A stretch of 63,258 bases of DNA, counting the filler, from Stramenopiles sp. TOSAG23-3 (Eukaryota): the NCBI GenBank assembly GCA_900128585.1. It is 2 parts of 2 records of this genome, joined end to end, with 100 filler letters (N's around TTAATTAATTAA, not from the genome) between each part and the next. Parts side by side here need not be neighbours in the genome. Positions count along the whole stretch, not along the records: positions 31,793 to 63,258 come from LT642222.1; 1 more part is not named here. The stretch is one strand, 5' to 3'. Below, piece after piece: positions 10,910-63,258 of the stretch. How positions within the stretch are numbered: position 1 is the stretch's first letter; each line of letters starts with the position of its first letter. A model generated the notes under the pieces. The model saw nothing but the letters and a program-made list of their open reading frames with translations. It had not been told where the DNA came from and searched no databases. Both the position numbers and the translations under genes were made by a program.

Positions 10910-13900
10910 ATGAATAGCCGTGGCAGAGAAGGTTATGAGGAAATGGTTTCAAGCTATATGTCCCTAGTGTCGAACACTTTAAGCGGTTCAAAGCCACTCG
11001 TTTATGGTGAGTTTTTGCGTGCTATGGTAGCGTTTGATAACGGTACTCTTGAAGCCGACCGTTGCCTACGCATCGTACGCAGACTATTTAGTAAGTTTCC
11101 GCGGCTACTGAGCGGATTTGAGCACATGCACAGAGCGTTAGTGGGGGAAGACAAACTTGTCGCCAAACCCTCCGCTACCCACCTTTTGAAAAGTGCCGCC
11201 GGCGAATCCAACTTTGCCGATACCACGAATGGGCCAAATTTGAACGGAACAGACCGCAAAGGTAGACGAGAGGACAGCCCTGCCGTGGAACCAAAGATAG
11301 GGCAGCCCCTTGAAGTTGGAGCGACTGTTAATAATAATAAGCGTAGCAGAAACGGTCATATTGAACGGCGAGGCGTGAAAAAAATTAAAGCCGCTAAAAC
11401 ATGTGTCACGTTAAAGGGGAAAGGTAGATTCCGAGCATGCGCGAACAATTTGAAAACCCCGAATTCTACCCAATTTTTACGTATGGGGTCAAAATGCGTG
11501 TTGAATGTGTATTTTGCACATAAAATCAAGAGTGGAAAATTGAAAGAATTGTTGAAACCCGTGTTTGCTGGCATGAATACCCTTTTTCACAATATACAGC
11601 AAAACGATCTGATTCAAAGTTTGCTCTCGTCAACAGGGAACGACGCCGAAAGATTTTGCAGCAATCATGTTACGGAGGTCAACGAATTGATAAAACACAC
11701 ACGGGTCGCAAAAGATTTTTTATACGAATGCTATAGCTCCCAAGTCAGGGAAAATTTGGAAAAAGAAAGAAACAACGCGAAAGCGTACGCAAGAAGTCGT
11801 CAGAATTTTCGACCGTTTCACAATTCGAACCGGTCAAATGAGCTTATTGGCGAAATGGACGACCATCCGGATACAAAGTTGGAAATTGTTGCCAGAGATT
11901 TGTCGCAGACTTTAAATCGCCCGTGTGGATACAAACGACAGACAGAAGGAGCTGTGGTTGTCACCAGCATTCCCTGTGGACGAGGTTCGGGCGATAAGCC
12001 CTCATACAGCCACGATGCTATTCGAAACCCCGTCTTCCCGCCCAACCCCCACTCGTCATGTTACATAGGCATTTCTGACAACTACTACAAAGACGACGAA
12101 AGTGTGCTGCGATATGTTCCTTGGTTTGGTGATAACGACGAAGAAGGAGTGGATCTAAGCGCATATGATGTCGTGCCTGGGGAAGAAGACAAGATGATGG
12201 CCCATGAAGGAGATGATTATTTGGCAATAACTTGGACGTTCACGATCGTTCTTGCTGCACACATGTATGGTGGTTTGTTGGGTGAAGATGGAGAACGTGG
12301 ACGTGTATTTGATGGCAGAAATGTTAGCAAAGTGCCAAAATCCATTTTTTGCCTGGTGGGGAAATTGATGGGAGGCTTTGGTGGAAGCACGGTATTTCAG
12401 CGCATAGAAGAACTACTTTCCAAGAGCAAAAATGGATTTTTCATAGACACCGTTTATCTGAAACAGTTAGACGGTTGGGCACAAGACATCTACAGCAAGT
12501 CCAGGAAGAAAAGGGGGTTAGATCAGCAGAGGACCGATTTGACACGCTCGACACTGTCCATATTCTGTTGGAAGAAGGAATTTCGTAGCGATATCATAGC
12601 CAGCACCAAGTCCACAAAGTTTGCACATGCCAAAAAGAAATTGTCCGAAGATGTCCGTTCTCGGTTCCAACTCTTGCCAGAAATGCAAACTATGTTCGCA
12701 AATGGTTCAGCTCACAGGGGACTCAGAAAAGGCCCGTTCATATTTGCAGGAGATGAAGACAACGTAAATGGCAGTATCGAGCAAGACGCGGGGTGGTTGA
12801 TGGAGTCGTATAAATCCTTGTTTTGCAGACGATGTTTTGTGTACGATTGCCAAAAGCATGGTGCTGAGCATCCTGTGCCTCGTTGGCCGGAAAAGATAAA
12901 TGTTGGTCGTCGAGGGAGTCTTACTCCCTGCAGTGGAAGTTGCCATCTTGCCGTAAAAAGGAAGACCGCTCGAATCAGCAATGCTGCTCTAAGCAATGTG
13001 TCTAACCCCGACGTCGAACTTGCATATCAAGTATTGCGTTCAACAAACGGAAATACCTGCAAAGCAGTTAATATCCTGGGAAACCACTGGGGGGACGGGG
13101 CAGTGATGCCCAGCTGCATTTTTTTGCATATTTTAGTGTCTCAGAAATGGCCAGAATTGCTAGAAGATGACGAGCAAAAGGGGCGGGCAAAAAAAGGGAA
13201 AAAACAAATGAAACCAAAGCCTGTCCGTCGAGAGCGTCTGTTTACGGATGCATCATTCAAACCTTGCGATCACGAAGGAGCCTGCACCGTTGCAAATGGG
13301 TGCTCGTGTGCAAAAAATAACAACTACTGTGAAAAATACTGCGCATGCGTAAAATCGTGCAAAAATAGGTATCTCGGCTGCAACTGCAGAGGAAAGTGTG
13401 TAACAAAAACATGTCACTGCGTAGCAGCGAGTCGGGAATGTGATCCTGATTTATGCGTGAATTGTGTTTGCGACGATAGTTGTCATAATTGCGTGATGCA
13501 CAAAAGGCGCGTTAAACTTGTTATTGGTCACTCTTCTATTCACGGTTGGGGCTGTTTCACGACTGAGTTTATAAAGAGAGGCGCTTTCATCAGTTCATAT
13601 CTAGGTGAGTTAATATCTCAGGACGAGGCCGATCGCCGTGGAAAAATTTATGATAAGCTTAAATGTAGCTTTTTGTTTGATCTGAATACAGATTACGTTA
13701 TTGACGCAACGAGAAAAGGCAACAAATTGAAGTATGCTAATCACAGTCATGAATTTGCTAATATGGCTCCACGAATTGTGATTCGCAATGGTGATCACTA
13801 TGTTCATATGTATGCAAAACGCGATATTGAGCCGGGGGAAGAGCTGTGCTTTAATTATGGTTACGGTTCCGATGGATCTGGCAATGAATGGGCCAATCTA

Positions 13901-13921
13901 AAAAGGTGGAAGCGACGGTGA
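10910..13921 (+). CDS. EZH: Enhancer of zeste-type histone H3K27 methyltransferase (PRC2 catalytic subunit) with N-terminal PAH-like domain
   Basis: SAL/SRM-like DDESVLRYVPWFGD; MCSS LFCRRCFVYDCQKH; CXC (CEKYCAC...RECDPDLC); SET (GWG, YLGELISQDEADRRGKIYDK, SFLFDLN, DATRKGNKLKYANHS, ELCFNY). Confidence 0.93.
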   Translation: MNSRGREGYEEMVSSYMSLVSNTLSGSKPLVYGEFLRAMVAFDNGTLEADRCLRIVRRLFSKFPRLLSGFEHMHRALVGEDKLVAKPSATHLLKSAAGESNFADTTNGPNLNGTDRKGRREDSPAVEPKIGQPLEVGATVNNNKRSRNGHIERRGVKKIKAAKTCVTLKGKGRFRACANNLKTPNSTQFLRMGSKCVLNVYFAHKIKSGKLKELLKPVFAGMNTLFHNIQQNDLIQSLLSSTGNDAERFCSNHVTEVNELIKHTRVAKDFLYECYSSQVRENLEKERNNAKAYARSRQNFRPFHNSNRSNELIGEMDDHPDTKLEIVARDLSQTLNRPCGYKRQTEGAVVVTSIPCGRGSGDKPSYSHDAIRNPVFPPNPHSSCYIGISDNYYKDDESVLRYVPWFGDNDEEGVDLSAYDVVPGEEDKMMAHEGDDYLAITWTFTIVLAAHMYGGLLGEDGERGRVFDGRNVSKVPKSIFCLVGKLMGGFGGSTVFQRIEELLSKSKNGFFIDTVYLKQLDGWAQDIYSKSRKKRGLDQQRTDLTRSTLSIFCWKKEFRSDIIASTKSTKFAHAKKKLSEDVRSRFQLLPEMQTMFANGSAHRGLRKGPFIFAGDEDNVNGSIEQDAGWLMESYKSLFCRRCFVYDCQKHGAEHPVPRWPEKINVGRRGSLTPCSGSCHLAVKRKTARISNAALSNVSNPDVELAYQVLRSTNGNTCKAVNILGNHWGDGAVMPSCIFLHILVSQKWPELLEDDEQKGRAKKGKKQMKPKPVRRERLFTDASFKPCDHEGACTVANGCSCAKNNNYCEKYCACVKSCKNRYLGCNCRGKCVTKTCHCVAASRECDPDLCVNCVCDDSCHNCVMHKRRVKLVIGHSSIHGWGCFTTEFIKRGAFISSYLGELISQDEADRRGKIYDKLKCSFLFDLNTDYVIDATRKGNKLKYANHSHEFANMAPRIVIRNGDHYVHMYAKRDIEPGEELCFNYGYGSDGSGNEWANLKRWKRR

Positions 13922-14657: not shown

Positions 14658-17600
14658 TTAGTCCATTGAGCACAACAAAGCTGCTCCGCGAAGTTCCCAA
14701 TGTTGCGGCCTTGCTTCACGGGTTGGTAAGTCAACTACGCAAATAAGATGGAGGTCCGTACGCCTAGGGTACTTATAGAGGGGGCAAGAATAAGCGCCGT
14801 AAGGACCGTACTCTCCAGAACTACCCCTCTTTTGATTGGAGGTAACCGCGGTTATGTACAACACTGGAAGAGGTGAAAACAACTTTTTTGGATCGCTCTC
14901 CACAAGCGAATTGTCCTGCTTACTCCATGCACAACCGTCAAGAAAAAGTCCATAGACGTACACACCCTCCTGTGGCGATTTTTTCACATTGGCTTTTCCA
15001 GTAAATTCAGTCACCTCGGTGTGCAAGAGGACATCGTCAAGGCTCCATCTGTCATTAAGGTGGGCCCGGGTAACTTCTTGTTTCATGGCAGTTAGAAAGC
15101 CCTGTGGGTTAAAGAAGGCAGTAATTGAAAACGAGGTGGGGCTCCCTTTCGACAGCCATGAAGACAATTGCTCGTTTCTTTCAATCAGGTTGCCAAACCA
15201 TACCCCAAGATTAGGGGATAACCACGATATTTCATTTCCCGACGCACTAGATACCCATGAAGGCGGTACTCGAGCGTCAAATAAGGCATTCATTGAATCC
15301 ATTAACCTGGCAGTCATAACCACTTCTCCCCGAATCGCTTGCATGAGCACAGACAAAGTCAGACGAACAATAGAAATAACCACCTGCAGCCTTTGCACCT
15401 CTTGGAACAAAAATACGTTCAGCGGTATATCAAGGCCACCAAGTTTATTGATCTGGTTAACATATGCATCTTGCACATATGCGCTTGGCAATTTGTCCAG
15501 CAATTCTTTTGCTTTTTCCATCACAAGCTGTTCCCTAGTTTTCCCACCTTCACCCCCAACAGCAGATTTTGGCTGCGTTTCCAAAAGAGTGTCCAGAAGC
15601 TCTGTCACTTCTTTCGTCCGGTACGTCATGTCAGCGTTAGGATGTAACCCAAATATCTCTGGCGAGTCAACTTCTGGGTAAGTGCTTAGATACTGCCGGT
15701 AAATATCGATTTCCATGCCATCTGGAATTGAGTAAACGAAGTCTTTCGGAATTTTTCCTACCATAGTTGACGGATTGAAGGTAAAATTAGGGGCCAAAGT
15801 ACTGGGGGTCAACCACGTCTCAGTATAAGTTTTGAACATTCGCCTGTCCATATCGTCCGTAATCTTTCCACCGTATTGAACCTCGCTTACAATGTATTGC
15901 AATGTCGGCCACGAAATTTGTTGCGAATACAAGTGTTTCTCCAAAAACGTCGCACATGCCCCCAAATCACTAGAATTGAACTCATATGGAATGCACCACC
16001 CTAGTGCTCCGAACTTACGCCTTTCCATAATTATAGAGTGAAGAAAGCACAACGAGAACAATAATGCTCTCCATTGCGGTGTGTCAACCCTCTCTAGTTT
16101 TTCTTGATCGACGAAAGCAGAATAGTTATGCAGCATACCGGCCCGAAGTCCAGCTGGGGGCTCGTTTGTGACTTTCATAGAACATTGCAGCAGCCCTATT
16201 GGAAATTGTGGATGGGGTTCAGATGTCAAAAACAGTCTGAATGCTTCATTCGTGTTCCCATCCGTTTTTTTCAACTTAGTCAAAACATCTTCTAATGTCA
16301 TAACGAAGTCCAACCCGAGATGACAGTTTTGCAACAAAACCCAGGTGCCACCGACCGAAGCAGAAGAAATAGCTTTTAAGGCATAGGGTTCTTGGCCTTC
16401 CCCAAGTGACACAGTTGTAACAGTTGTCTTTTGTTTTCGCGCAAATGCGTAAACATCCTCGGTAGGATCACTTCCCGCAGAAAGAAGGAAGATGACTGGA
16501 CTAGACCATTCAGTTGAGGCAAATACTTCTTCCATGGTGTCGGTTTGCGCGTCAACGTACCGTGGCCCTAACGCTGGTAATTTCGTTGACGACCCTTTCA
16601 CTTCAATTTCTTCTAGTTCGCGCACAAAATCTAAGGCAGCTAAAATAAAGCGATCTGGCCGAAGGCTTCTGATCAGTAACAATTTTAGAAACAATCCCCT
16701 TGCATGACCTTCGCTTGCAAAACGTGCACTTACATCAGGTGGGTCCATTTTCTCTGGTTCATTTTCTTCCCACCAACGACGCCATTGCGCTTCACTCCGC
16801 GTCATATCGTCGCAAAGAGAATGAAAAAATGGACACTCCTCGGACAGGTTCACAACATTAAGCCAAATATTAGTGTCCAGCCAGTCGAACGGCTTCGGTT
16901 TGGTCGTCGCCGCGTCCAATGCAGCCCCACCCTTCAAAAGGGTCATTACCTCGTTTTGTCCCAAAACGCTGGCCGTTACTAACATTTTACAAGACGACAC
17001 AAGGATGTACGCAAGCCGATCCTGCCCATACATGCAGCGGTTCATATAGCGGTACGTATCGTAAGTCAACGTTTCGACTATATTGGTCACCCGTTTTGAC
17101 GAGAGTGATGCTTTCTCGGCAGTATCCATCGACCTTTTAAATATCCCAATAAACTGAGTGAGACTTGTCAAGTACATGTTGTTCACCGCGCTCATATCGA
17201 CAACTGAAAAATACAGGACGGAGGCTCGGGTGGCGACTGCACGATACTGTTCTCGTTTCTCGTTAATTGCAATCTTTGTCTCCTGGGCAGCGATTAGTTT
17301 CTTGTTGACCTCTGTCGCTTTTTTCTTCGTTTCCCCTAGAACCTCGATCAATTCAACATCATCTAACAGGTTTCCCTTGTTCTCCGTTAGTCTTTGCAGG
17401 AGCTGTTCATCGAGCACAAGCAAAGCTTTGGTGTTGCTGGCAACCGATGCGAGAACCTCGTTCAATTGGTCTTCTAGAATCTGTTGTTCTTTCTTTATAA
17501 CACGGCCTAATAATTGTTCTTCTAGACCAAGTACTGTAACAGTAAAGTCTACAACAGTTGCGCGGGCTTGTATCTCCGGTGAGAAATGGGGATTTGGCAA

Positions 17601-20600
17601 CCGTGTTGTTAAATATAACATGAACGCCTCGTCGTATTCGCACATTTTGTCTCCTACTGTAATGTACAGGGACCTTGCTTTTTTTATTACGTGCTTTTCT
17701 AAAATCGGATCCAACATGGGGTCAATCTCTTCTTCAATGCCAGTGATAATTAATGCCTGGCCCTCACTTAATGTTTGCTCAATTTGATCTCTCAACCTAG
17801 GGTTAGTCAAAGTAGTTGCCCCAAAAGCCGGCATATTGTCAGCTTCACGCCGAAGTATCCAGTCTAAACCTTGTCCTTGGGGATCGACCAGAAGGGGATA
17901 GCGTGTCGCTTGAGTGACTAACACCCCGTTGTCAATCGACAACGGGTCCGTTGGTAGCCCCTGAACATTCCATTCCCCTACCATACCTTGGTCAACGAGA
18001 AAGGATTGTAAGTTCAAGGATTCGGTTGCCGGAATACTTCGTTTATGGAGGTCCATCGAAACTTTACCTTTCACGATCATATCTCTGAACGCCTGATTAA
18101 ATGGGCCGCAATAACTCAGAAACGCAGAAGCTGAAGCACAGTCTCCAACTAATCGCATGATTTCGTCGGCGAACTTTTTGCTGTCTTCTTTCCACCTTTG
18201 CCTTTCGCCCGAGAGGCCTTCAATCAACTGTGTTGCCATCTCCATTTTTCTTCTCGTTTTATTCGCATTGTCCTCAATCGCTTGCTTTTCCGCCATTTTA
18301 CTTTCAAATTGTGCCTGCAGCGCGTCTAATTTGGCCTTGCACTTATCCAACCTCCCTGATGCAATTGCAAGCTCTTTGTTTGCATGGTCAAGTTTTGAAG
18401 ATGCAATTGCCAAGCTCTCCAATTTAGGTTTCACAACTTTGGATGCGTGGTGATACATAGACATAGCCCGAACCCATGAGCAAAGTCCTTCCGCGGCTTG
18501 GGACGCATTTCTCGCTACCGATGGCAAAAACGACTCAAGTTCCAAATAAGGGGCAATCAATTCCATCGTTTCTTCATTCATATTGTCTTTCTCGTGTTGC
18601 GAAAAATAAAATAATGATTTCAGGAAATGGGCGTCAGTCAGCATACCAGCTTTAATAATGGTGTAAGAATTTTGCAAGAACATGAAAGTTTCTTTGTCTT
18701 TACCAATACCCATCGTTACAGGGGCCTTTTCTACTTTGGCCATTGGCTGCATTCGCAATATTGACACACAGTCAAACACCAACTTGATGATATCGGAGGG
18801 TTTCGGCAACTTTTTCAGTTCATTTAAATCTGCTGGCTTAATAGAGTTCACAGCCCTTTCCGCCTCATCTAAGAACGGTTGCGCTTTATCTAAATCTGCC
18901 TGGCACGCCTTTTTCTCCTCTTCGATAGTTTTTGATTCCGCTTCGCAAGAATCCCTGATTAGACCAACAGCTTCGCTTTCCTTCTTAGCTTCTAGTGATG
19001 AGACTTGTAATGTTCCGAGCATTGCACTACACTCCTTATCGGACTCTTTCAACACTTCCTCCTGAGCCGCTAGCTCTACTTTCATCTTCTCGACGTCAGC
19101 TGCGCCCTTCAAAAGCTTATCTAAACCGAGTTTCACCCTGGACTCTTTAGTTTTTACCAGTTCTAATTTCTTGGAATAAATATTTTTGTACAGCGTCAAA
19201 TACGAAAGAAATGCTTTTGGGGTTTGGTGAACGTGCCTGCGCATTTTTTGAAAGTAATCCCCACATGTTTCTACAACAGTAGAGTGCGTTGTCCCCATGT
19301 GTTCAGTCAGCTGCTGCAAAACGTTTTTGTCACATTCGATGCTGGAGAACGATGATATAAAGCCATCAGCAACTCCCACCAATGCCTCTTTGGGCCACGC
19401 AAGGAAGAAATCGATGGTCGTTCCATTGATCAAACCCGGGAACTTCCTTGCCCTTTCAGCAAAATTTGGATTCATTGGAGACATGCATAATACTAGATGC
19501 AAGTTTTTCCTCACCACATCCACGAAATATTTGACTAAGTTTTCTGTGTTATCGTTCATGCCCGGCCTTTCTTTTGCAAAAGATGCACGAAGGTCGGCGA
19601 CCATAAGGTTGAGCTCATCTTTAGGAAAGAGCCCTGCCACCTCCCCGGTCATCAAAATACTATTAATGTATTCCAGAAAGTCTTCAGTCACGATGTCACC
19701 ATCGGTAAATATCCACGTTACGCCACGGCCCTGCTGCCCCGCAATCTTAAATAACTCTCTGGTGTCTTCCAACAAGCTAGCAACGTTGTAAGATTTTGTA
19801 AGAGAAATTTGGAAAATGTGCTGCCGTGCTATGTACGCCGCGAGCTTTGTTGAAGACCTCTTTCCACTACCCCCGACCCCAACAAGCAATGCATTGCCTC
19901 GGTCCATTCCAATTATACGAGATACACGGAGGATATGGCGTAGAGCATCATCGAAGAGCACGAGCTCCATGCGTTCGGAAGGTTTATCTTCGTTGTGGTT
20001 TGCTAAAAACATCTGGGCAATTGGGCGGACATCAGATAGTCTTCCACCATGTTCGTAAACTCGGGGCGCTTCGTTGATTAGGATCCCGTCTTCGTCGTAT
20101 TCATCCTCACGCAAAAAATCTACAAACAGAGGATATTCATCCTTTACTTTAATATTGTCAGCTGTGCCATTTCCAAAATTTTTGTTGGTAATCGCATTTA
20201 ATTCTTTCATGAATTTCTTTTTGTCGTTAATCCCTGTAAGTTTGTCAGAGAATACCCTTTCAGCTTCGTGATGCCATAATTGGAGCAGCATTTTCTCAGA
20301 TGAAATTACTTGCCTGGGGACACGTAAAATTCCTTGGAACACACGGCTTAAATCGCGCATGTTGAAAATGTAAAAAAAATTTGCTGGCGTTGGCAAAAAG
20401 TTGCTCTTCACCCAAGTCCATAACGCAATAGTTGCTCCTGTCAGTTTTTTGGCGCTTTCTCTTATGCCTGCAGAGCCTTTCGATTTCTTGGCTTTACCTT
20501 TGCCTTTACCTTTTTCAGATTTCGAAGCCACAGGGCTTGCACCAAATCTTCCACCGAGCATTTGCCCGTAAATGTCATCAACAGAAGACATGGTCGGTAT

Positions 20601-23600
20601 TGTCATGTTGAAAATAAAAAATAGCTGCTTCAGTCTGTTCGGCAAGTCGTTCTTGCCACCGGACGGAGTATTCGCTGCAGCGACATAGGTCAAATCTTCA
20701 ACAAACTTTAAGTCTCCCCTCTTGTCCTTATCCAGAAAGCAGACGCTATTGTCCGCCACAAGCTGACGAACGCACTCTAGCGTTGGTTGATTCCCCCATT
20801 CATTTACTTCCGGCATGTTCATATCATCGAGAAAAACCGTCATCTGTTTCCCATTTGGGGGACCGTAAGTTTTACCTCCCCGCTTATCAAGTTCGCCTTC
20901 GATGCTGCCTTGAAACATCCCTCCAGTGGTTGCACTAGAAAAATTTATCTTCTTAAGCTGTCGCGTTTCAGAGTCAAATTTGTCAAAGAACATCAGTGCT
21001 GTTACGGTCTTTGCAGTCCCACCTTCACCCACCATCAACGACGGATATTTCTGCGCGTGAAGATGACTGATGATGTATTCAGATCTGGAACTGTCTAAAG
21101 TAGGAATAAGAAGATTACAGAAATCTAACTCGTCCCCTTGCCAAGACGGATACTTCCAGGATGGGGCGCTCCATTTTTGCCACGTAATGCTTTCTGGGTC
21201 GACAAAAAAGTCGTATACCGTTTCTCCTTTATCTGTAGCTTTCGGCATTTCTTCACTTACGCTTCGTAAATATTGATCGAAGCGCTCCCTGTCGTCAATG
21301 TCAAGTCTACCACCGACACTCCATGCCATTGTGTACAAAAACAGCCTCTCAACTTCAAGCTCTAAATCAGATGGTGCAATTGATAGGTTCGATTTATCCA
21401 ACAGAGCTCCCAGAAGAGCACATGCCCCTGCAATCACACTTACACGCGATGTTTTAACGACCTCTTCGCACTGCGTTCGAACAAACGCGAACCCGGCACC
21501 TTCATTTCCATCACTTCCAACAATAGTCATAAAAAACTGAGTTAGGCACGCCTGTTCGGTTTCTGGGCGTTTTGCAATCCATGCTTGGGCATATGGCAGC
21601 CAGTCTAAATCTTCGCGGCTGACATAAATGATACCCACCCTTGACACTGTAGCTGGTGATGCGTTGTTTAAGTTTTCGACTTCGAACATTAGCTTAACAT
21701 TATCCGTCATCGGTATGCGGTCGCCGTTTGCAAGGGTCAATAATTTATTATCATCCAACACAGTGTTTAAGTTTTCGATCCAAATTGCGTCAACAGGACC
21801 ATCGCAAACTATCCAAGAATGGAATTTGTTCGTTCGTTGATTCGATTTACCCCACATCATTGCAAATACGCCATCCATCCATTCACCGCTGAGCTGATCA
21901 GTCTCGCCAAACATCTCATCGGCTTGGATTGCTTTAGGATTCATACTGATAACTTTAAACGGAACTCCTTTGACTTTGCTTAATGCGTTTGCTAATGTAC
22001 CGATAATTGTACTTTTACCACCACCGGCTGGCCCAACAAGCATAATGCCATGTCTCACAAGGTATGTATCATACAGTTGCTGCACCTTAGCTAACCAGGG
22101 CTTGTGCAAAATTAACCCCTTAGATTCGACGGTTGAAGACAAAGCGTTTTGTAGTTCTACCCCACCGGCATTCCCAGCTGGCGGTTCCATACCGGGGAAA
22201 AGATCAGCCAACAGGCTCAAGAACAATGGGGTATCTTGAGATACCATCTTGCTCAGGTTCATATCTCGCAAAGTGCCCATCATCAGCAGTGCCTCGTCTT
22301 TATCCACGTTATCACGCTTCACTTTTCCTGCAGTCCTCAATACACTGAGAATGTTTCTCAGTCCGAAATCATAGTGGCGTTGTTTGCTTAGCTGTTCTTC
22401 ACATAGTCGGTAGAGAACACGAAACTTCTTTGCCAATTCGGAAAACCTTGAATATCCAACGGAGCACAACTTCACGCGAATAATGATTTCTCGATCAGGC
22501 ACCATCATAGCCACAGAGCGAAACAGAACTTTCAGATTTTCTGGTAGTTCTTGTCTACCCTGATAGCCGGGATTCATCGTAATAAAGTATCCGACAATAG
22601 GATCCATCTCAATATTTGAAGCATCCCCCGGGAATGTAAAGGTTGTCGTTGACGTCCGCTTGGCATTGGTTATTGCGAGGACCTGCTGTGCAACCACGGA
22701 CAAAACGGGCAAGCGAATTCTGTTAAACTCATCAAAACAACCCCAGAGACCGGCTTGGCATAGCCCTTTAAATATTTTTGCACAATCGGTGTAGCTATGA
22801 TTATCAGTGCAATTTGTTACGACAACGTACAAGCCTAAGGCTCGCCCTAGGTCCTTTACGGTTTCTGTTTTTCCTGTTCCCGCTGGGCCAGCAGGGGCTC
22901 CGCCGAGGCACATACCTAGCGCTTGCGACAGGGTTATGTACGCTCGATCGGTTAAAGGCGTTATTACAAGCCGTTCCTTACACCCAAGGTACTCATGGTT
23001 GTACTGAAAATCTACATCGCATATAGAAATAATGCATGCCCCCTCACCTAATTTATCGTTTGCATCTGGGTTATAGTAAAAGCGAGCTTGTTTCAACCAC
23101 TCAAAATCACTCGCAGAAGAAACTTTTCGCTCTTTATAAAGCTTCGTAAGGTCGGCAAAAACATCTCTTTGGTGCACTTGAATTGTAATTAAAGTTTCTA
23201 TTTTTCTTCTATTCATCTTGGTCCCCAAGTCACCCAAAGTCCAAGAACTGAGTTCTGACAAAACTGCTAATTGCGCTTTGTTATTATCTTGCATCGCAGT
23301 TTTTGACGTTCTGCATTTGTCTAGAGCTTCGATGCATTGCGCGGTCCAATTCACTTGTATCCCAAGGAGAGCAAACTGTGCAGGATATTTGTCAACGAAT
23401 TCCTTCAGCTCCATTTCCATAGAATCATCGCACGCTAATTCGGCTAGATCCTTCATGGTTATTTGCATAACGCCCAGTAACTTCCGTAGCCAGTCTTCGA
23501 TGTTTCCAGTTGCAGAAACGGACTTGACAAGTTTAATACATTCTTCGTCGGCCCCGCTTGCATTTACTAACTCAATTATATCATTTTTCTTTTTCTCGTC

Positions 23601-48265: not shown

Positions 48266-51200
48266 CTATGCTGGGCTCAAGGTCCGCCTGTCCACTATCG
48301 TTTCGTTCCCGGTCTGGCCACGGGTGTCCATCCTCAAGTAGTCTCCAACCGACCATGCCTTGGCAAGGTCGTCGTAGTGAGGGGAAAAGAGGTCCCCGCT
48401 CTGCCCCAAGGGGCCGAGGAAGCGGGAGTTGGACGTTTTGCTCTCCTTGTACAGCTCGTCCACCTGGATGATCTGGCGATAGGAGGGCCCTTCGAGTTGA
48501 ACCATGTCCGCGTCGTCGTCGTCGATGTGGCCAACGTTGACCGTGCTGCTGTCCCCCCCATGCCCTACAAAGATATCGGCAATGCACTTGGCCGCGCTGT
48601 TGTGCAGAATTTGGTGCGTGAAACGAGCCATGTGAAGGTCGACCCCCCATCGTGCCCCGGCAGTCTTCGCCTGGAAGTCGGTCACCTTGTTTAGCTTCAA
48701 GGCTGCGTACGCAAGGCATGCACTTCTTGCTTTCGACAGCCCCTTCAGGACAGTCCACTTTTGTTTAAGCACCGCAAGGGCCCCGGCACAGGCCGCGTCT
48801 CCACCCGCCATGAAGGTCTTCCTGAGGTAGTTCGCGGAAAAGAACGCCCCACGGCCTATTTCGTGGTCCGTCACCTTCGCCAACTCTATCATAAACTTTG
48901 CAAATTTGGTGGCCACAATACTTCCGACGTCCATGTTCCCGTTGAAGTAGGCCGGGTCATGGTTCGGCTGCATCAGGCGGGCCTGTTCGATGGCATCGCT
49001 CGTTAGGTCCAGCTCCGTGTGGTACTTCATCAATTCGGGCAGCAACCCGTGGAAATCATCGTACCACCCAGAGTGGTAATCCAGCTGAATGTTTCGCATG
49101 TCCTCTGTGTTCAGCAACGGCTTCGCTTTGCCCGCCTCGCCCAGTTTGTGCCCCAGAATCATCTCGGTGATCCGCTTCGACCTGTACCCTTGCATCGACG
49201 CGTCCCAGTCGTGGCTGAGAAGGTATCCGCCCTTCTCGAAACCGACAGGGCAGACCTGGTTGTTTGCCGACGCCACAAACCCTCGGGGCGGGTTGTACGT
49301 GCGTGGCATGTCGTCGAAGGGCATGAACTGGTACGGGGCAGCACCGTCGGGGCTCGGGACCCAGCGGTACTTCCCACTTGCTGGAACGGGCATTTTCCCC
49401 GTGTGCCCTTCGGCTCGCTTCGGGACCTTTCCAGGCATCTGGTACCCAAAGTTTCCCTCTCTATCAGCAAATACGAAGTTTTGCGCCGGGGCGACATAAC
49501 CTTCCAACGCCTCGCGAAACTCGGTGTAGTTTTTGGCCAGGTTGATCCGATCGAACGCAGCAAAGGTTGTGTCTACGATGGAAGGGTCTGTGGCGACCCA
49601 CTGCATTGCAATTGGGAATTTGTAGGCCGTCTTCGTGCTGTGCAGTGGCCCAAGAACCCCATTGTCAGAAATGACCGGGCCCACCTTTGTCCAACGGACG
49701 TCGATCGTGACCGGGTTGCCGCCCTTCACTTTGAAAGTTTCTTTGCTGGTGTCGTAATTGACCCATTCACCGCCCAAGTTGTACTGCGTCTTGTCGTCAG
49801 ACTCCTTGTCAATGATATACAAGTCTTGAACGTCTACGGCGGTGTTGGTAACCCCCCACGCAATGTAAGAGTTCCTTCCGATGACGATGCCTGGAAGCCC
49901 GACAAAGCTAGCACCCCAAAGGGACTGACCAACGTCTTCTATTTCAAGGTGCGTCGTGATCCAAACGCTGGGGGCCGTCAGGGCCAAGTGCGGATCGTTG
50001 CACAGCATTGCCGACCCGGTCTTGCTCCGCTTCGGACCAACGACCCAGTTGTTCGACGCCCCCTTTGTGGAAAAGAGCTGGCCGAATTCCCCGTGGTTCA
50101 GGAACAGGTGGCGCGGTGGCTCCTGGTTCGAAACGTCGCCGTGCTTGCTCCGGTGCGCCGTGGCGTCCGCCTGAAGCCCTTTGTAGAAAGCGTCCAGTGC
50201 AGGGTTTCGCTTCACCGAGACAGCATCGATCTTGTTCGTCCCCGGTCCCCCGTCTGCACTCTTCGTGATATCGTCCATGGTGAGGACAGTCGGAAAGTGG
50301 GAAGTGTTGAACGGGGGAACGAGCTCCTCAATTCTATCCAGCGATGCGCCGCTGAGAAGTATGTTCAGCCGAGCGAGCTCAAACTTCAGGTTTCCACTCA
50401 AGTCCAGCGCCATCAGCTTTGACCAAACAAGGGAGTCCGCCGCAGTCCACGGCTCCATCTCTTTGTAACCCAAAAGCTGCATCTCCAATGGCAGCGTCGG
50501 CTTGCTGTCCAAGTATGCATTGACGCCTGCGACGTAGCTATCAATGCTGGAGACAGAGTCCGCGTTCATATGCTGAAGGCTTCGTTTGGCACCTTCGTAG
50601 ACCCCCAAAGTTCGCATCAGCTTGTCCGTCGCGAGCGCTTTGTCCCCCACAAACTCGGCCAACCGGCCTTGCCCTACACGACGCTGGAACTCCATTTGCC
50701 ACAGCCGAAGCTCTGCCGTCATAAGCCCCTGCGTGAACAGGGCGTCGTGGCGCGTTTTTGCAGTAATGTGCAGCATCCCTTTCTTGCTAACCTCCACGGT
50801 GGTGTCGGCGCGTAAGCCCTTCGCCTTCAACGGTGCCCGTCTGCCGCCGCTAAAGTAAACGTAGGAAATAGTCAACATGATAAGCGCGACGAGCGTCAAA
50901 ACCCCGAACCCCATGATGATAAGCCGTACGCAGCCCCTTGGGGTACATACCGAATATTTCTCGGCGTTCGATGCCGGCTGAAGGATTGGAAACAACGGTT
51001 GGTTTATCTCCTTGTTGGAACCCGACGTCGCGCCGAGCCGCCGTAGTGGATTGTTCACCAACTCGCCCTCCTCGTCCTCTTCCTCTGTCGGACCGCGCCA
51101 CCACCATATTCCCGTAAAGACTATTGCCCCAAATATTATTGCCCCCATTACGGCGAACGCAATCATTAACGGCGCACACCGTGCAATCCAATTGTGCAAA

Positions 51201-51307
51201 TGCGCGACCAAAAATGCAAAAGATACCACAGACAACACCGTGCACGAGAATGTCCAATAGAACCGTGAATATTCCCCACAACTGCAACAACCACATTTTT
51301 TCCCCAT
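48266..51307 (-). CDS. Penicillin acylase / AHL-acylase family (peptidase S45, Ntn hydrolase) with N-terminal transmembrane segments
   Basis: Alpha part GMLHITA...RLWQMEFQRRVGQGRLAE; beta-chain start GA|SNNWVV (Ser at 50054-50056), NDPHL, GLPGIVIGRN, AWGVTN, DVQDLY, QNFVFADREGN, NPPRGFVASANN, GQSG. Confidence 0.92.
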   Translation of the reverse strand: MGKKCGCCSCGEYSRFYWTFSCTVLSVVSFAFLVAHLHNWIARCAPLMIAFAVMGAIIFGAIVFTGIWWWRGPTEEEDEEGELVNNPLRRLGATSGSNKEINQPLFPILQPASNAEKYSVCTPRGCVRLIIMGFGVLTLVALIMLTISYVYFSGGRRAPLKAKGLRADTTVEVSKKGMLHITAKTRHDALFTQGLMTAELRLWQMEFQRRVGQGRLAEFVGDKALATDKLMRTLGVYEGAKRSLQHMNADSVSSIDSYVAGVNAYLDSKPTLPLEMQLLGYKEMEPWTAADSLVWSKLMALDLSGNLKFELARLNILLSGASLDRIEELVPPFNTSHFPTVLTMDDITKSADGGPGTNKIDAVSVKRNPALDAFYKGLQADATAHRSKHGDVSNQEPPRHLFLNHGEFGQLFSTKGASNNWVVGPKRSKTGSAMLCNDPHLALTAPSVWITTHLEIEDVGQSLWGASFVGLPGIVIGRNSYIAWGVTNTAVDVQDLYIIDKESDDKTQYNLGGEWVNYDTSKETFKVKGGNPVTIDVRWTKVGPVISDNGVLGPLHSTKTAYKFPIAMQWVATDPSIVDTTFAAFDRINLAKNYTEFREALEGYVAPAQNFVFADREGNFGYQMPGKVPKRAEGHTGKMPVPASGKYRWVPSPDGAAPYQFMPFDDMPRTYNPPRGFVASANNQVCPVGFEKGGYLLSHDWDASMQGYRSKRITEMILGHKLGEAGKAKPLLNTEDMRNIQLDYHSGWYDDFHGLLPELMKYHTELDLTSDAIEQARLMQPNHDPAYFNGNMDVGSIVATKFAKFMIELAKVTDHEIGRGAFFSANYLRKTFMAGGDAACAGALAVLKQKWTVLKGLSKARSACLAYAALKLNKVTDFQAKTAGARWGVDLHMARFTHQILHNSAAKCIADIFVGHGGDSSTVNVGHIDDDDADMVQLEGPSYRQIIQVDELYKESKTSNSRFLGPLGQSGDLFSPHYDDLAKAWSVGDYLRMDTRGQTGNETIVDRRTLSPA

Positions 51308-59237: not shown

Positions 59238-60507
59238 TGTCGTCGAGGAAGTTGATGGGTGTATGTAATAGTGTGGATAGGATTCGAATTCGAATTGTAA
59301 ATTCAAATCAATCAAACAACAAATAGACAAACTAGATCGAATGATAGTGCATGCACAAATTCCCTTTCTTTCTTCTCTTTTTTGAGATATATATATACAT
59401 TTAGTACGAAATGCGCATTCTTCTTTTTGTTCAAAGGATGTTTTCCTCTTCTCTTTTTGTTATTTCTTTCTTCTCTATCTCTCTTTTTTTTTAATTTTTC
59501 TTCTTCTTCTTCAATTTGGTTGTATTAACATCATCATAGCAAAGAGCACAGATGTGGTTAAAATTATGCCAATATAATAATTTAATGTCATCATCATCAC
59601 ACAACTACTTCTTCGCTTGGTCAAAAGAAGAAGAAGAAGAAGATAGAAGAAGAAGAGAAAGAAGAGAAAGAAGAAAGAAGAAGAAAGAAGAAGAAAAAAA
59701 GAAAGAAGAAGAAGAAGAAGAAAAGTAATATTTATTATTTTAAAAAAAGTATTACCATACTATTACTATGTTATAATACTAGTAACAGTACTATTTTGAT
59801 AAAAAAATAATAGTATTATAAGGTACACAGTATTAAATAATAGAAATGTATAAGTTTGATTTTATTGTAAAAGAACGACGACTTCGTATTCTTTCTATCA
59901 TACTTGTATTCTCGAACTTTTATTAAACCTAACGAGGACTTAGAATAGAAGCGATTATATAGTCTAATAAGTAAAAAAACCTTTTCTTTTTTTTTCATAT
60001 CCACTTCGATTTAATGGTATTATTCACCTACCTGTACTAATTACTCCATACTCCTCCTCATTACCAGGTAGTACGGTACGGTGGTTTGATGACCAGAATC
60101 ATTTTACCGTCGGTACCTTATGGTATTTATTACCAGGTACAGGTAGTACGTAGGTAAATATAGTGTCTAAATACTATATTCGCTACGGGAGTACAGGAGG
60201 AATTTAATATAATAATAATACTACATTTTTTGTGTACACCTCCTCCTTCGTTCGTCGTATTTTTTATTAATAATTATATTATTAATAAATTATTATGCGA
60301 AGTATAAGTATTCATTCGTACTTTATGAGGTGTGGTCATTGAGTGGTGATTGTGTGTGAATAAGATGTACTTTTTTTCGTTTGCTGTTCAGTGAGTTTCG
60401 GTTCTATTTGCCTGTACTGCTTGGAGTTGGTTGTTTTTCTCTTTTGTTTTTGTGTTTCTCCCCCGTGTGTCCGTTTGTGTGTGTGTGTGTGTGTGTGTAT
60501 TTTTGGA

Positions 60508-63120
60508 ATGAGCGGAGAAAACGGTGTGGTTAAAACGCCGCAGAATGCGAGGGGGCGGGCGAACAGTCGAGCGACGGAGGGCACGGATTCTGTGACCCAG
60601 GCCGACCTGTCCGAGTTCAACAATGCAGAAGCCTCCACTATCTCCCAGGAACTCTCCAAGCTCCTGTCCGTGGAAGACGTCGGGCCAGTCGGCGGCCAAC
60701 ACGACGACGAGATGTTTGCGATGGACTTGGACGAGGGAAAGGGTGGGTTTGGCCTCCCGGACTCGGTCAATACGATGGCCCTGCCGTCCCCAATCCCGAA
60801 GAAGGGGGAGGGGGAGGCCCTCGCCCCCACGACCGTCGTCGGGAAGCCCGGCCCGTTCCGCCGACTCTCAAGGTCTTCTGTGGACAGGTCCAGCTTTCAC
60901 CTCGCCGCAGAACCTATCGGGCCGAGGAATTTCGAACTTCTCTGCGTCCTTGGGCGAGGGGCGTTCGGCAAAGTTGTCCAGGCCAAGCACCGGGGGACCG
61001 GGCAGATCTATGCGCTCAAGATAACCGGGAAGGAGTTCCTCCACAACAAGTCCGCAATCGACTGCACGATTGAGGAGAGGGACGCGCTGACCCAGGTCGT
61101 GCACCCATTTTTGGTCAAGCTCCTCGCCACCTTTCAGACCAAGTCCAAAGTGTACCTGGTCATGGAGTACCTGATCGGCGGGGAACTCTTCTCGAGGCTG
61201 GAGAACCGGGCGTTTTTTGTAGAGTCCGAGGCCCGCTTCTACGCCGCCGAGGTCGTCCTTGCGATCGAGTACCTCCACAGCCTTGGAATTATCCACCGCG
61301 ACCTGAAGCCAGAGAACGTTCTCTTGGACGCCCAGGGGCACATTCGAATCACCGACTTTGGCCTTGCAAAGACGACCAAGAAGGCGGGGGGGGGTGCGAA
61401 GGAGGGCGAGGCCCCGTGCAAGACGATCTGCGGGACTGATGAGTACATGGCCCCGGAGATGATCAAGGGGGCACGGTACGGAAAATCTGTCGACTGGTGG
61501 GCCTTCGGCTGCCTTGTATTTGAAATGTCCACCGGGAACGCGCCCTTTCGCGACAAGAGCAGGAAAAAGCTCCACGAGAAAATTTTGCACAGAAAGCCGG
61601 TGTTTCCGACCTACCTCTCCGGGAACACGGTCTCATTTTTGAAAATGCTCCTCCAGCGCAACCCAGAGCAGCGGCTGGGGTCGCAAAAGTCCACCATGTT
61701 TGAAGTGAAAGGCGTCACGGCACTGAAGAACCATCGTTTTTTTGACGGGACAGACTGGCACAAGGTCTATACAAAGCAGCGGGATGCCCCGCACGTACCG
61801 ACCGTCCAGGGGGAGCTGGACACGTCCAATTTTGACGAATCTTTCACCCAGTCGTCCGTCATAGACTCGCCCAGGAGCTCGTTCACCATCAAAGGCAAGG
61901 ATGGGCGCTCCGAGAGCCCGTCCAAACTGTTTCGGGGCTTCTCCTGGCAGGATCCACTGTTCATAGAAATGCACAGCAAGAGAGAGCGGGGGAACAGCAT
62001 GAACTCCGACGGGGACGAGGCGATCAACGACCACAACCTGCCCGGGGAGGACGACGTCGTCCTTGTGATGGACAGGCAGGGGGGAAAGCCCCGCCCAGGC
62101 ACCGGAAAGAAGAAGAAGAAGAAGGCCGCGGACACCATGGCCCTCAAGATATGCTCGGCGTGCCACAAGGAGCTTGCGGGGAGCATGTTTACAAAGTCTC
62201 AGCACAAGCGAGGAACCCGCAGGATATGCATGGCATGCGTAGCTGCAGGAAAGACTTCCCGGCCGTTCCCCGAGGAAACGCCGATTCAACAGGCCGCGCC
62301 CGAAGAGGCCAAAGAGGTTGCAGAGGAGGAGGAGAAGAAGGACTGCCAGGACGGCGGGCAGCCCTCGACGGGCGCCCCGGCAACTTCCCCTATCGTGCGG
62401 CAGAGCAGCAATGGGAGGAGGACACTGGCAGCAATGGCAGAGGCGAACGCCGCAGCCGCCCGGGAAAAGCAGGCGACCCCTGTCTCGCCGCTGAGTGCGG
62501 ACGTTCCCGCGTGGAAACCGCCGAGGCTTCGGGCGGACGTCCCAGCATGGAAGCCAAGGTTTAAGGCCAACGCGCCTGCATGGACACCTTCGACGACTCA
62601 GGTGCATCCAAAGCCAGCGCCTTCTTCCGCAGCCTGCCCTGCGTGGGGAAAAAAGCCAATGGCAGCCTCCCTTACGCCCATGGTCAGACGGACACAGGAA
62701 ACGGAGCGAGCGAAGTCGCCGCAGGAAAGTACAAGCAGTCCGCCAGCTCGTCCTGCGTGGGGAAAAGATCCGGCAAAGCCAGCGCCCACGGAGCCTTCTT
62801 CCGCATCCCGCCCTGCGTGGGGAAGACCACAACCAAAGCCAGCGCCTTCTTCCGCAGCCCGCCCTGCGTGGGGGAAAAAGCCAATTGCAGCTTCCCCTAC
62901 GCCCATGGTCAGACGGACACAGGAAACGGAGCGAGCGAAGTCGCCGAAGGAGAGTACAAGTAGTACGCCAGCTCGTCCTGCGTGGGGAAAAGACCCAGCA
63001 AAGCCAGCGCCTGAACCTGTCGCGTTTGCGGTCAACGATTTTCCCACCCTTGGGGGAAAATCGAAACAAACCCCAAAACCAGAGGTGAATTCCGTATGGG
63101 GGAAGAAGAAGTGGGCGTAG
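60508..63120 (+). CDS. AGC-family ribosomal S6 kinase-like protein kinase with extended C-terminal tail
   Basis: TOS-like FAMDL; LGRGAFGKV, HRDLKPEN, TDFGLAK, TICGTDEYMAPE, VDWWAFG; turn motif VIDSP; hydrophobic motif FRGFSW; start at ATG 60508. Confidence 0.9.
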   Translation: MSGENGVVKTPQNARGRANSRATEGTDSVTQADLSEFNNAEASTISQELSKLLSVEDVGPVGGQHDDEMFAMDLDEGKGGFGLPDSVNTMALPSPIPKKGEGEALAPTTVVGKPGPFRRLSRSSVDRSSFHLAAEPIGPRNFELLCVLGRGAFGKVVQAKHRGTGQIYALKITGKEFLHNKSAIDCTIEERDALTQVVHPFLVKLLATFQTKSKVYLVMEYLIGGELFSRLENRAFFVESEARFYAAEVVLAIEYLHSLGIIHRDLKPENVLLDAQGHIRITDFGLAKTTKKAGGGAKEGEAPCKTICGTDEYMAPEMIKGARYGKSVDWWAFGCLVFEMSTGNAPFRDKSRKKLHEKILHRKPVFPTYLSGNTVSFLKMLLQRNPEQRLGSQKSTMFEVKGVTALKNHRFFDGTDWHKVYTKQRDAPHVPTVQGELDTSNFDESFTQSSVIDSPRSSFTIKGKDGRSESPSKLFRGFSWQDPLFIEMHSKRERGNSMNSDGDEAINDHNLPGEDDVVLVMDRQGGKPRPGTGKKKKKKAADTMALKICSACHKELAGSMFTKSQHKRGTRRICMACVAAGKTSRPFPEETPIQQAAPEEAKEVAEEEEKKDCQDGGQPSTGAPATSPIVRQSSNGRRTLAAMAEANAAAAREKQATPVSPLSADVPAWKPPRLRADVPAWKPRFKANAPAWTPSTTQVHPKPAPSSAACPAWGKKPMAASLTPMVRRTQETERAKSPQESTSSPPARPAWGKDPAKPAPTEPSSASRPAWGRPQPKPAPSSAARPAWGKKPIAASPTPMVRRTQETERAKSPKESTSSTPARPAWGKDPAKPAPEPVAFAVNDFPTLGGKSKQTPKPEVNSVWGKKKWA
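62608..63013 (+). repeat. In-frame 225-nt-period tandem duplication in the kinase tail
   Basis: ccaaagccagcgccttcttccgcagcc...gcaaagccagcgcc starts at 62608 and again at 62833 with few substitutions. Confidence 0.92.
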
Positions 63121-63258
63121 AAGAGAAGGACAGAGATATTTAAGATATTATAAGACGAGGTTAACGTTAACTGGAGTACGCAAGAGGAAGATAGTGTGTA
63201 GATTAAACGATAAATGTAAATCGATCAACCAACCTTCCCCTGTATTATTTTCCAAAAA

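Follow-up and report, generated by a model that had tools for sequence, protein, structure and literature searches.

The stretch analysed here (the window) comprises 63,258 nucleotides of Stramenopiles sp. TOSAG23-3, assembly GCA_900128585.1, and the subject of this text is a single protein kinase gene at positions 60508-63120, on the part that comes from LT642222.1. One stop-free frame on the plus strand was translated into a protein of 870 amino acids, designated P0001, and all residue numbers refer to this translation. The protein was found to consist of an AGC kinase followed, after the hydrophobic motif, by a tail of 390 amino acids rich in Pro, Ala, Ser and Lys. A reading made from the DNA alone, referred to below as the sequence-only reading, had assigned S6K hallmarks (FAMDL, VIDSP and FRGFSW) to the kinase and a zinc finger, PAM2-like motifs, WG motifs and NDFPTLGG to the tail, and all of these were found where that reading had placed them. 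The features of the gene are as follows.

60508-63120, plus strand: complete coding sequence, 870 amino acids plus the stop codon, for which no intron is needed; colinear with the relative P0014 (968 amino acids) from Met1 to the C terminus.

60715-60729, plus strand: motif FAMDL, residues 70-74, resembling the TOR signalling (TOS) motif, in the acidic context HDDEMFAMDLDEG; pattern F-x-[MILVF]-[DE]-[MILVF].

60940-61689, plus strand: protein kinase catalytic domain, residues 145-394, with the T-loop KTICGT (T306); Pfam Pkinase, E value 7.5e-70.

61804-61947, plus strand: AGC C-terminal extension, residues 433-480; Pfam Pkinase_C, E value 3.8e-8 (residues 433-479).

61948-62076, plus strand: island following the hydrophobic motif, residues 481-523, including KRERGNS (an R-x-R-x-x-S site) and INDHNLPGEDDVVL; recognised by identity between P0001 and P0014.

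62107-62124, plus strand: lysine run K534-K539, a basic patch; Lys/Arg-rich runs lie at the same relative place in the relatives P0015 and P0016.

62143-62274, plus strand: single CxxC-x21-CxxC finger of Stc1 type, residues 546-589 (Cys 549, 552, 574 and 577); sub-threshold with Pfam Stc1, linked to that family through the protein P0011.

62491-62589, plus strand: three tandem PAM2w-like motifs, LSADVPAWKP (662-671), LRADVPAWKP (674-683) and FKANAPAWTP (685-694); assigned by pattern match.

62605-63011, plus strand: repeat region in which PAWG[KR] occurs five times, derived partly from the direct repeat 62605-62786 / 62830-63011.

63034-63057, plus strand: NDFPTLGG, residues 843-850, with FPxL at 845-848; TDFPSLGG stands at the same relative place in P0014.

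63097-63117, plus strand: C-terminal WGKKKWA; P0014 ends in AWGKKLG.

That the gene would be a single open reading frame (ORF) was borne out by the uninterrupted translation, and public collections were found to contain the identical 870-amino-acid protein in a cluster of eight near-identical members. The sequence-only reading had also considered that transcripts might end after the hydrophobic motif, of which there was no sign. Metatranscriptome contigs from four runs (at most three samples, three studies) matched the kinase and the tail at 99% identity or higher, and two of them, 61615-62097 and 61626-61987, both from one sample, cross the hydrophobic motif (61930-61947) and run into the tail. 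Further contigs from RNA libraries cover the finger, the cluster of PAM2w-like motifs and 62755-63184, the last of which takes in the spacer between the repeat copies and the stop codon. DNA carry-over is possible in those libraries, and the contigs, with zero cover at 60300-60497 and some empty bins in the tail, should not be taken to mark a transcript start or gaps. Together they lend moderate support to one transcript.

Several further observations concern the same locus. A (TG)n microsatellite (60476-60500) lies immediately 5' of the start codon, while the upstream spacer holds a long tract rich in (GAA)n at 59620-59725; the repeat stretch 60464-60508 was skipped when reads were placed. 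An antisense ORF at 61633-63069 on the minus strand (478 amino acids, rich in Arg, Leu and Cys) overlaps the tail; it seems to be a side effect of the GC-rich, repetitive sequence on the coding strand and not a gene of its own. One public assembly has the kinase gene (locus L002) called as two proteins on one contig, P0008 and P0006, of 310 and 482 amino acids; the first departs near residue 297, which fits a frameshift or an error of sequencing, and this copy has a single repeat unit. DNA near-identical to 60400-63258 was found in 20 of the 24 marine or seawater metagenome runs listed, from 12 studies, with two of those runs flagged as possible sources. Because near-identical DNA of the gene recurs in marine metagenome runs from many studies, the organism seems widespread.

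Relatives were sought with the whole protein (the best 120 of 2898 matches, with 8000 candidates scored) and with a profile (the best 120 of 2853). Among the matches listed, only three other proteins are long-tailed. The nearest ortholog is P0014, with 53% identity to P0001 over 99% coverage, and P0015 (852 amino acids) and P0016 (890 amino acids) are 58-61% identical to P0001 over the kinase. The next matches listed are tail-less AGC kinases of 468-601 amino acids at 49-52% identity, some of them from oomycetes, and these are followed by vertebrate RSKs. All four tail-bearing proteins have a TOS-like motif together with two or three PAM2/PAM2w-like motifs. An exhaustive search with the tail alone among 1.84 billion representatives returned six matches at an E value of 0.001 or better, of which three were self matches, to the whole protein or to fragments of it, and the other three were confined to the finger; the tail outside the finger thus matched nothing else in that collection at this threshold. 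A word search restricted to the tail gave only the self match, and since low-complexity words had probably crowded the candidates it is no evidence of absence. A search of the Atlas with the whole tail gave no usable match. When metagenomes were scanned for the hydrophobic-motif signature of the subfamily, L-F-x-x-F-S-W-Q-x-P-x-F-x-E-x-H, three loci were recovered, all of them copies of known proteins and none a new ortholog: L001 is close to P0016, L002 represents the window organism, and L003 is close to P0015 and shows that this type of gene is likewise one ORF.

P0001 and P0014 are 84% identical along the kinase; along the tail the figure drops to 41%, with the identity gathered in islands at residues 481-523, 546-589 (the finger) and 662-686 (motifs one and two of the PAM2w-like trio). 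DFP[TS]LGG and the terminal WGKK are also common to both. The expectation that the tail motifs would be conserved in orthologs was therefore only partly realised: the finger and the PAM2w pair form islands, PAM2-like motifs occur in four of four tails and FPxL is kept in P0014, whereas the WG motifs vary widely in number, as detailed below. The island at 481-523, with its R-x-R-x-x-S site, may be a pseudosubstrate or autophosphorylation element. P0015 (812-852), P0016 (849-890) and L003 end in a module of about 40 amino acids, EEKRYDxGxLFTKKEFxSYYGFHSGxQRW, which replaces the FPxL/WGKK end and gave no Pfam match. An AlphaFold model of the full protein built with four sequences had a mean pLDDT (predicted local distance difference test) of 36, and the kinase itself was poorly modelled; the sole part to reach 69-82 was the finger (residues 551-580). 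Because even the kinase was modelled poorly, low values in the tail are not readable as disorder. The tail contains 13.6% Pro, 14.9% Ala and 10% Lys, with no Tyr, 6 Phe and 10 Trp, and it looks like a disordered linker.

The S6K-type regulatory motifs proposed for the kinase are present in the translation. The TOS, T-loop, turn and hydrophobic motifs are described as defining S6K regulation (PMC5974435), and in addition to the T-loop and the TOS-like FAMDL, the turn motif VIDSP was located at residues 451-455 (S454) and the hydrophobic motif FRGFSW at residues 475-480 (S479). The T-loop Thr, the turn-motif Ser-Pro and the hydrophobic motif are all kept in P0014, P0015 and P0016, the hydrophobic motif being invariant in P0014 and of the form F-x-x-F-S-W in P0015 and P0016. 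The best solved relatives were the N-terminal kinase of RSK2 (269.7 bits), S6K1 (266.3 bits), Akt1 (263.5 bits) and PKA (260.7 bits). By its sequence the protein is an AGC kinase with S6K-type regulatory motifs, and likeness in sequence is not by itself enough to call it an S6K. Every one of the four tail-bearing proteins has the TOS-like pattern exactly once and none of four tail-less relatives has it, against a background of four occurrences in the 14158 amino acids of the other window ORFs. It is N-terminal in P0001 and P0014 but lies inside the C-terminal tail in P0015 and P0016, and the contexts HDDEMFAMDLDE and EEDEMFQMDLEE, the one N-terminal and the other C-terminal, are nearly alike. 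The retention of the motif despite its relocation argues for function. The position of a TOS is flexible, since 4E-BP is described as bearing its TOS at the C terminus (PMC5974435).

The three PAM2-like motifs of the sequence-only reading are present as a run at residues 662-694, and the first two have the counterparts LRANVPVWKP and LRADVPAWQP in P0014, within the identity island. The PAM2 consensus is given as LNxxAxx[F/W]xP, with anchors at Leu/Phe 3, Asn 4, Ala 7 and Phe/Trp 10; Phe or Trp at position 10 separates PAM2 from PAM2w, and the pocket of the MLLE domain is reported to tolerate that swap (PMC7356810). The window motifs fit the consensus at positions 3, 10 and 12 in three of three cases and at Ala 7 in one of three. 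Across the four tails, position 10 is Trp in most motifs, FSPTAPAWKP included, and Phe in FNPASPAFSP (P0015) and FSPTAPSFSP (P0016). The pattern [LF]xxx[AVS]xx[FW]xP, a loose one composed post hoc when the motifs had already been seen, was counted 3, 3, 2 and 2 times in the tails of P0001, P0014, P0015 and P0016, against means of 0.02-0.04 in 5000 composition-preserving shuffles, of which 0, 0, 0 and 1 reached the observed count. For the tail of P0001 itself the mean was 0.022 and none of the 5000 shuffles reached 3. A stricter version in the published style, in which position 7 must be Ala, gave 1, 1, 1 and 2 matches in the four tails against means of 0.010-0.017. The loose pattern was absent from 19 further large ORFs of the window (14158 amino acids), from a further 164 fetched proteins (118413 amino acids in total, about 18900 of them non-redundant), and from the N-terminal and kinase parts of the four tail-bearing proteins. 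A PDB sequence search with the PAM2 segment returned one chance match (E value 0.38).

The motif DFPTLGG stands 25 residues short of the C terminus and belongs to NDFPTLGG, which had been picked out from the DNA as an FPxL motif. The kinase ZAK, the C terminus of SERBP1 and LARP4 are described as interacting with RACK1 through FPxL (PMC12823453). RNF10 is reported to bind RACK1 by a related FPxF (bioRxiv 10.64898/2026.08.26.747346), and LARP4 is described as having a PAM2w together with an invariant FPPLP that contacts RACK1 (PMC11565960).

The zinc finger had been written as CSAC, seven residues, FTKSQ, eight residues and CMAC. It is present at residues 549-577 (nucleotides 62152-62238), and its layout was corrected to C549-S-A-C552, eight residues, FTKSQ, eight residues and C574-M-A-C577, the spacer between CSAC and FTKSQ being 8 and not 7. 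Pfam Stc1 (PF12898) aligned to it over profile positions 53-83 of 84 with 15.6 bits (E value 0.024), below the cutoff of 24.8. The tandem eight-cysteine finger of Stc1 is absent from the protein, which has the four cysteines only. The finger is conserved in P0014 (16.2 bits with Pfam Stc1) and missing from P0015 and P0016. In the exhaustive search it matched units of P0011, P0012 and P0013 at E values from 1.2e-9 (P0011) to 7e-4, and P0011, a protein of 1108 amino acids with many such units, passes Pfam Stc1 at 1.1e-20 in six stretches. P0012 and P0013 also have AG-x-x-SRP-x-P after the finger, and in P0013 this is followed by ankyrin repeats. The nearest Atlas clusters carry PF12898, which is a lead only. 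AlphaFold gave the 68-amino-acid finger segment a mean pLDDT of 54.7, too low for fold comparison, and in a PDB sequence search the best match was a LIM domain (E value 0.81), with no Stc1 structure among the matches. As judged from these matches, the finger is one mobile four-cysteine unit of the Stc1-type family and not a tandem Stc1 domain. The kinship with Stc1 that had been claimed is thus retained through P0011, and the direct match, being sub-threshold and limited to four of eight cysteines, is not. Fission yeast Stc1 is described as bridging RITS and CLRC (PMC8490990), and this role cannot be transferred to the window finger. Recruitment of Argonaute or of an H3K9 methyltransferase, to which the sequence-only reading had pointed for the finger of S. 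pombe Stc1, is not implied by the window finger, because it is a single sub-threshold four-cysteine unit whose kin occur in unrelated proteins. The window protein was considered as a functional Stc1 homolog and rejected as such for its one four-cysteine unit and its Pfam score below cutoff.

All six WG[KR] motifs that had been counted were recovered (W713, W751, W771, W788, W826 and W864), five of them as PAWG[KR], against a shuffle mean of 0.089 for the tail. The copies of the direct repeat are 93% identical and 225 nucleotides apart by direct-repeat search, and the second copy holds two of the five PAWG[KR] motifs; Tandem Repeats Finder reported no array despite this two-copy repeat. The near-identical database variants P0006 and P0007 have one repeat copy each, and therefore either the copy number varies or some assemblies collapsed the repeat. 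The count of WG[KR] in the four tails is 6 in P0001, 2 in P0014, 0 in P0015 and 2 in P0016, and two of the six belong to a young duplication; the WG motifs are weakly conserved. P0014 repeats APAW[LA]PKT-x-SWA[AT]K in place of the PAWG array; since it has SWA[AT]K units, a Trp in a small-residue context is kept and the WG dipeptide is not. An Argonaute-hook or a CCR4-NOT reading of the array is possible but unsupported.

On the strength of these motifs we propose that the product of the gene is an S6K-like kinase under the control of TOR that docks on the poly(A)-binding protein (PABP) and on RACK1 by the same motif logic as LARP4, a reading to which we give a probability of about 40%. In this model an AGC kinase of S6K/RSK type would have its activity set, probably, by TORC1 and PDK1, and its control points would be the TOS-like motif as a Raptor-docking site, the T-loop Thr, the turn-motif Ser-Pro and the hydrophobic-motif Ser. 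The 390-amino-acid tail would serve as a docking platform. Its trio of PAM2w-like motifs (Leu/Phe 3, a small residue at 7, Trp 10 and Pro 12) is predicted to bind the MLLE domain of PABP, and DFPTLGG near the C terminus may bind RACK1 on the head of the 40S subunit. Docking on both would together station the kinase on polyadenylated, translating messenger ribonucleoproteins (mRNPs), with the Stc1-type finger and the PAWG[KR] array as putative accessory, fast-changing modules. Every binding partner and the dependence on TOR are what we infer from the motifs. A broader version, in which a TORC1-controlled kinase is hard-wired to mRNPs through PABP and RACK1 and the Trp array and the finger add partners, possibly Argonaute or CCR4-NOT, is regarded as rather unlikely. 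The earlier proposal of a kinase tethered to PABP-, Argonaute- or ribosome-containing mRNPs is kept in part: the PAM2-like motifs in all four tails and FPxL in P0014 speak for it, and the missing PAM2 profile match and the weakly conserved WG motifs do not.

A number of results weigh against the docked kinase. The consensus Asn 4 occurs in none of the three window motifs, and Val takes position 7 in the two motifs that are best conserved, a place at which the LARP4B paper describes a side chain larger than Ala as unfavourable (PMC7356810). Pfam PAM2 (PF07145) matched neither the whole protein nor an excised segment of 47 amino acids at E values up to 10, so the profile match that had been suggested as a check was not obtained; HMMER filters discard most weak matches to models as short as this. 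FPxL is missing from two of the four tail-bearing proteins (P0015 and P0016), and the bare pattern, of three residues, occurs 6 times in the 14158 amino acids of the other window ORFs. Because the bare pattern is so common, the evidence for FPxL lies in its conservation and context and not in its occurrence. The evidence from conservation is itself thin, because among the matches listed there are only four related sequences, falling into two pairs. Lastly, the bit scores of the kinase (266 for S6K, 270 for RSK, 264 for Akt and 261 for PKA) cannot tell these families apart.

Several of these points would also be expected if the tail were a lineage-specific, fast-evolving, low-complexity sequence. 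Its islands would then bind other partners, for example the lobes of the kinase itself in autoinhibition or some regulatory subunit, and the likeness to PAM2 and FPxL would be convergent or fortuitous. The missing PAM2 profile match agrees with this, as do the non-consensus residues that the best-conserved motifs have at positions 4 and 7, the exhaustive tail search, which hit nothing beyond self, fragments and fingers, and the conserved R-x-R-x-x-S site directly after the hydrophobic motif. S6Ks are described as possessing a C-terminal pseudosubstrate domain, which offers a precedent (PMC5974435). Such an origin is considered somewhat less probable than the docked kinase: the spacing of [LF] at 3, a small residue at 7, [FW] at 10 and Pro at 12 is held in ten motifs of four proteins whose surrounding sequence is unalignable, the alternation of Phe and Trp falls exactly at the MLLE-anchor position, and the co-occurrence with FPxL mirrors LARP4. 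Another use of the tail, which takes up the Argonaute hooks of the sequence-only reading, would be for its Trp motifs (PAWKP, PAWG[KR] and the final WGKK) to form a GW182-like multivalent platform for Argonaute PIWI or for the Trp pockets of CCR4-NOT/PAN3, and together with the PAM2-like motifs to bring the kinase into silencing or deadenylation complexes. All ten tail Trp residues do stand in stereotyped small-residue contexts, in a tail with 6 Phe and no Tyr, and the excess of WG[KR] over the shuffles is large. The array has evolved through recent duplication, with a variable number of copies, as is typical of repeat-type hooks, and the pairing of PAM2-like with Trp motifs is the combination of the GW182 silencing domain. 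This platform is nevertheless judged improbable, given the few or absent WG[KR] in P0014, P0015 and P0016, the SWA[AT]K units of P0014 in which the Trp is retained without the WG, and flanks rich in Lys, Arg and Pro; nor does the link to Stc1 add anything, because only one half-domain-like unit is present.

Least probable of all is that the finger and the preceding lysine run send the kinase to the nucleus or chromatin, as an Stc1-type adaptor or by S6K2-type localisation, where its substrates would be nuclear and not on mRNPs. KKKKKK does lie 10 residues ahead of the finger, P0015 and P0016 have basic runs in the corresponding position, the finger joins the Stc1-type family through P0011, and the bridging of RITS and CLRC by Stc1 in fission yeast would provide the model (PMC8490990). 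Yet the finger is missing from two of the four tail-bearing relatives, consists of one four-cysteine unit below the Pfam Stc1 threshold, and recurs in proteins of unrelated architecture, the ankyrin protein P0013 among them. The docked-kinase model is preferred, and the combination of motifs in the tail resembles LARP4 (PAM2w plus FPxL) more closely than GW182 or Stc1.

The comparison with known systems can be taken further for each part of the protein. The kinase resembles p70 S6K, RSK and Sch9 in its AGC domain with C-terminal extension, T-loop Thr, turn-motif Ser-Pro, F-x-x-F-S-aromatic motif and TOS-like F-x-Phi-[DE]-Phi; among the S6K/RSK matches listed, the window kinase alone has a 390-amino-acid tail with a finger, PAM2w-like motifs, a Trp array and FPxL. 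LARP4 and LARP4B are described as carrying, in disordered regions, both a PAM2w that addresses the MLLE domain of PABP and a RACK1 motif of FPxL type (PMC7356810, PMC11565960, PMC12823453). The window protein differs in that its effector is a kinase and its motifs, in triplicate, are C-terminal; its 14 Pfam rows include neither a La module nor an RRM, and because its tail is without Tyr, it has no Tyr-containing second RACK1 element, unlike LARP4. It is thus not a member of that family and would share the docking logic only. ZAK (MAP3K20) is described as a kinase seated on ribosomal RACK1 through FPxL (PMC12823453); it belongs to another kinase family, and the window protein is without its SAM domain or collision-sensing elements and carries FPxL near the C terminus, as in SERBP1. 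With S. pombe Stc1 the likeness is limited to the unit CxxC-x8-F[ST]xxQ-x8-CxxC, which fits the end of the profile; the window protein has this unit singly and not in tandem, and nothing points to Argonaute or CLRC. GW182/TNRC6 has a disordered region with a PAM2-type motif and multiple Trp motifs; in the window protein the WG units are few, young, poorly conserved and attached to a kinase. PAN3 is a PABP-binding protein that likewise brings together a zinc finger, a PAM2 motif and a kinase fold, the fold being a pseudokinase of another family. Its likeness to the window protein is one of architecture only, with a different domain order, and no homology is implied. Judging by titles and abstracts, no kinase carrying PAM2 is described in the papers listed for PAM2, S6 kinase and MLLE together, and the PAM2w papers listed are by title nearly all on LARP proteins, mostly LARP4.

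The remainder of the window is eukaryotic and almost intron-free, with GC-rich coding regions and AT-rich spacers. A dynein heavy chain of 4604 amino acids occupies one uninterrupted ORF (14658-28472, minus strand), because of which the genome appears nearly intron-free. The window also holds an actin gene, a p25-alpha gene just upstream of the kinase on the opposite strand, an Ezh2-like SET/CXC protein (10910-13921, plus strand; 1003 amino acids) and a UPF1-like AAA_11/AAA_12 helicase (6476-9934, plus strand; 1152 amino acids). A full-length protein of the penicillin amidase family (48266-51307, minus strand; 1013 amino acids; PF01804, E value 2.7e-176) may represent a gene of bacterial type carried by a protist.

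In animals and yeast, separate scaffolds bring S6K-type kinases to the translation machinery, and in animals the delivery of TOR output to the ribosome and the poly(A) tail needs S6K plus separate adaptors (LARP1/LARP4, eIF3 and SKAR). The tailed kinase is known from sequence, and among the matches listed from four sequences of uncultured marine organisms. It offers a clean case of short linear motifs that are conserved, and in the TOS-like motif even relocated, amid decaying surrounding sequence. If the proposed docking is true, the FPxL-RACK1 code, which was recently defined, and the PAM2w code would extend to a kinase outside animals, and the protein would be a natural fusion showing the placement of a kinase on mRNPs as a selected property. 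One polypeptide would then deliver the output of TOR to the ribosome and the poly(A) tail in this protist lineage.

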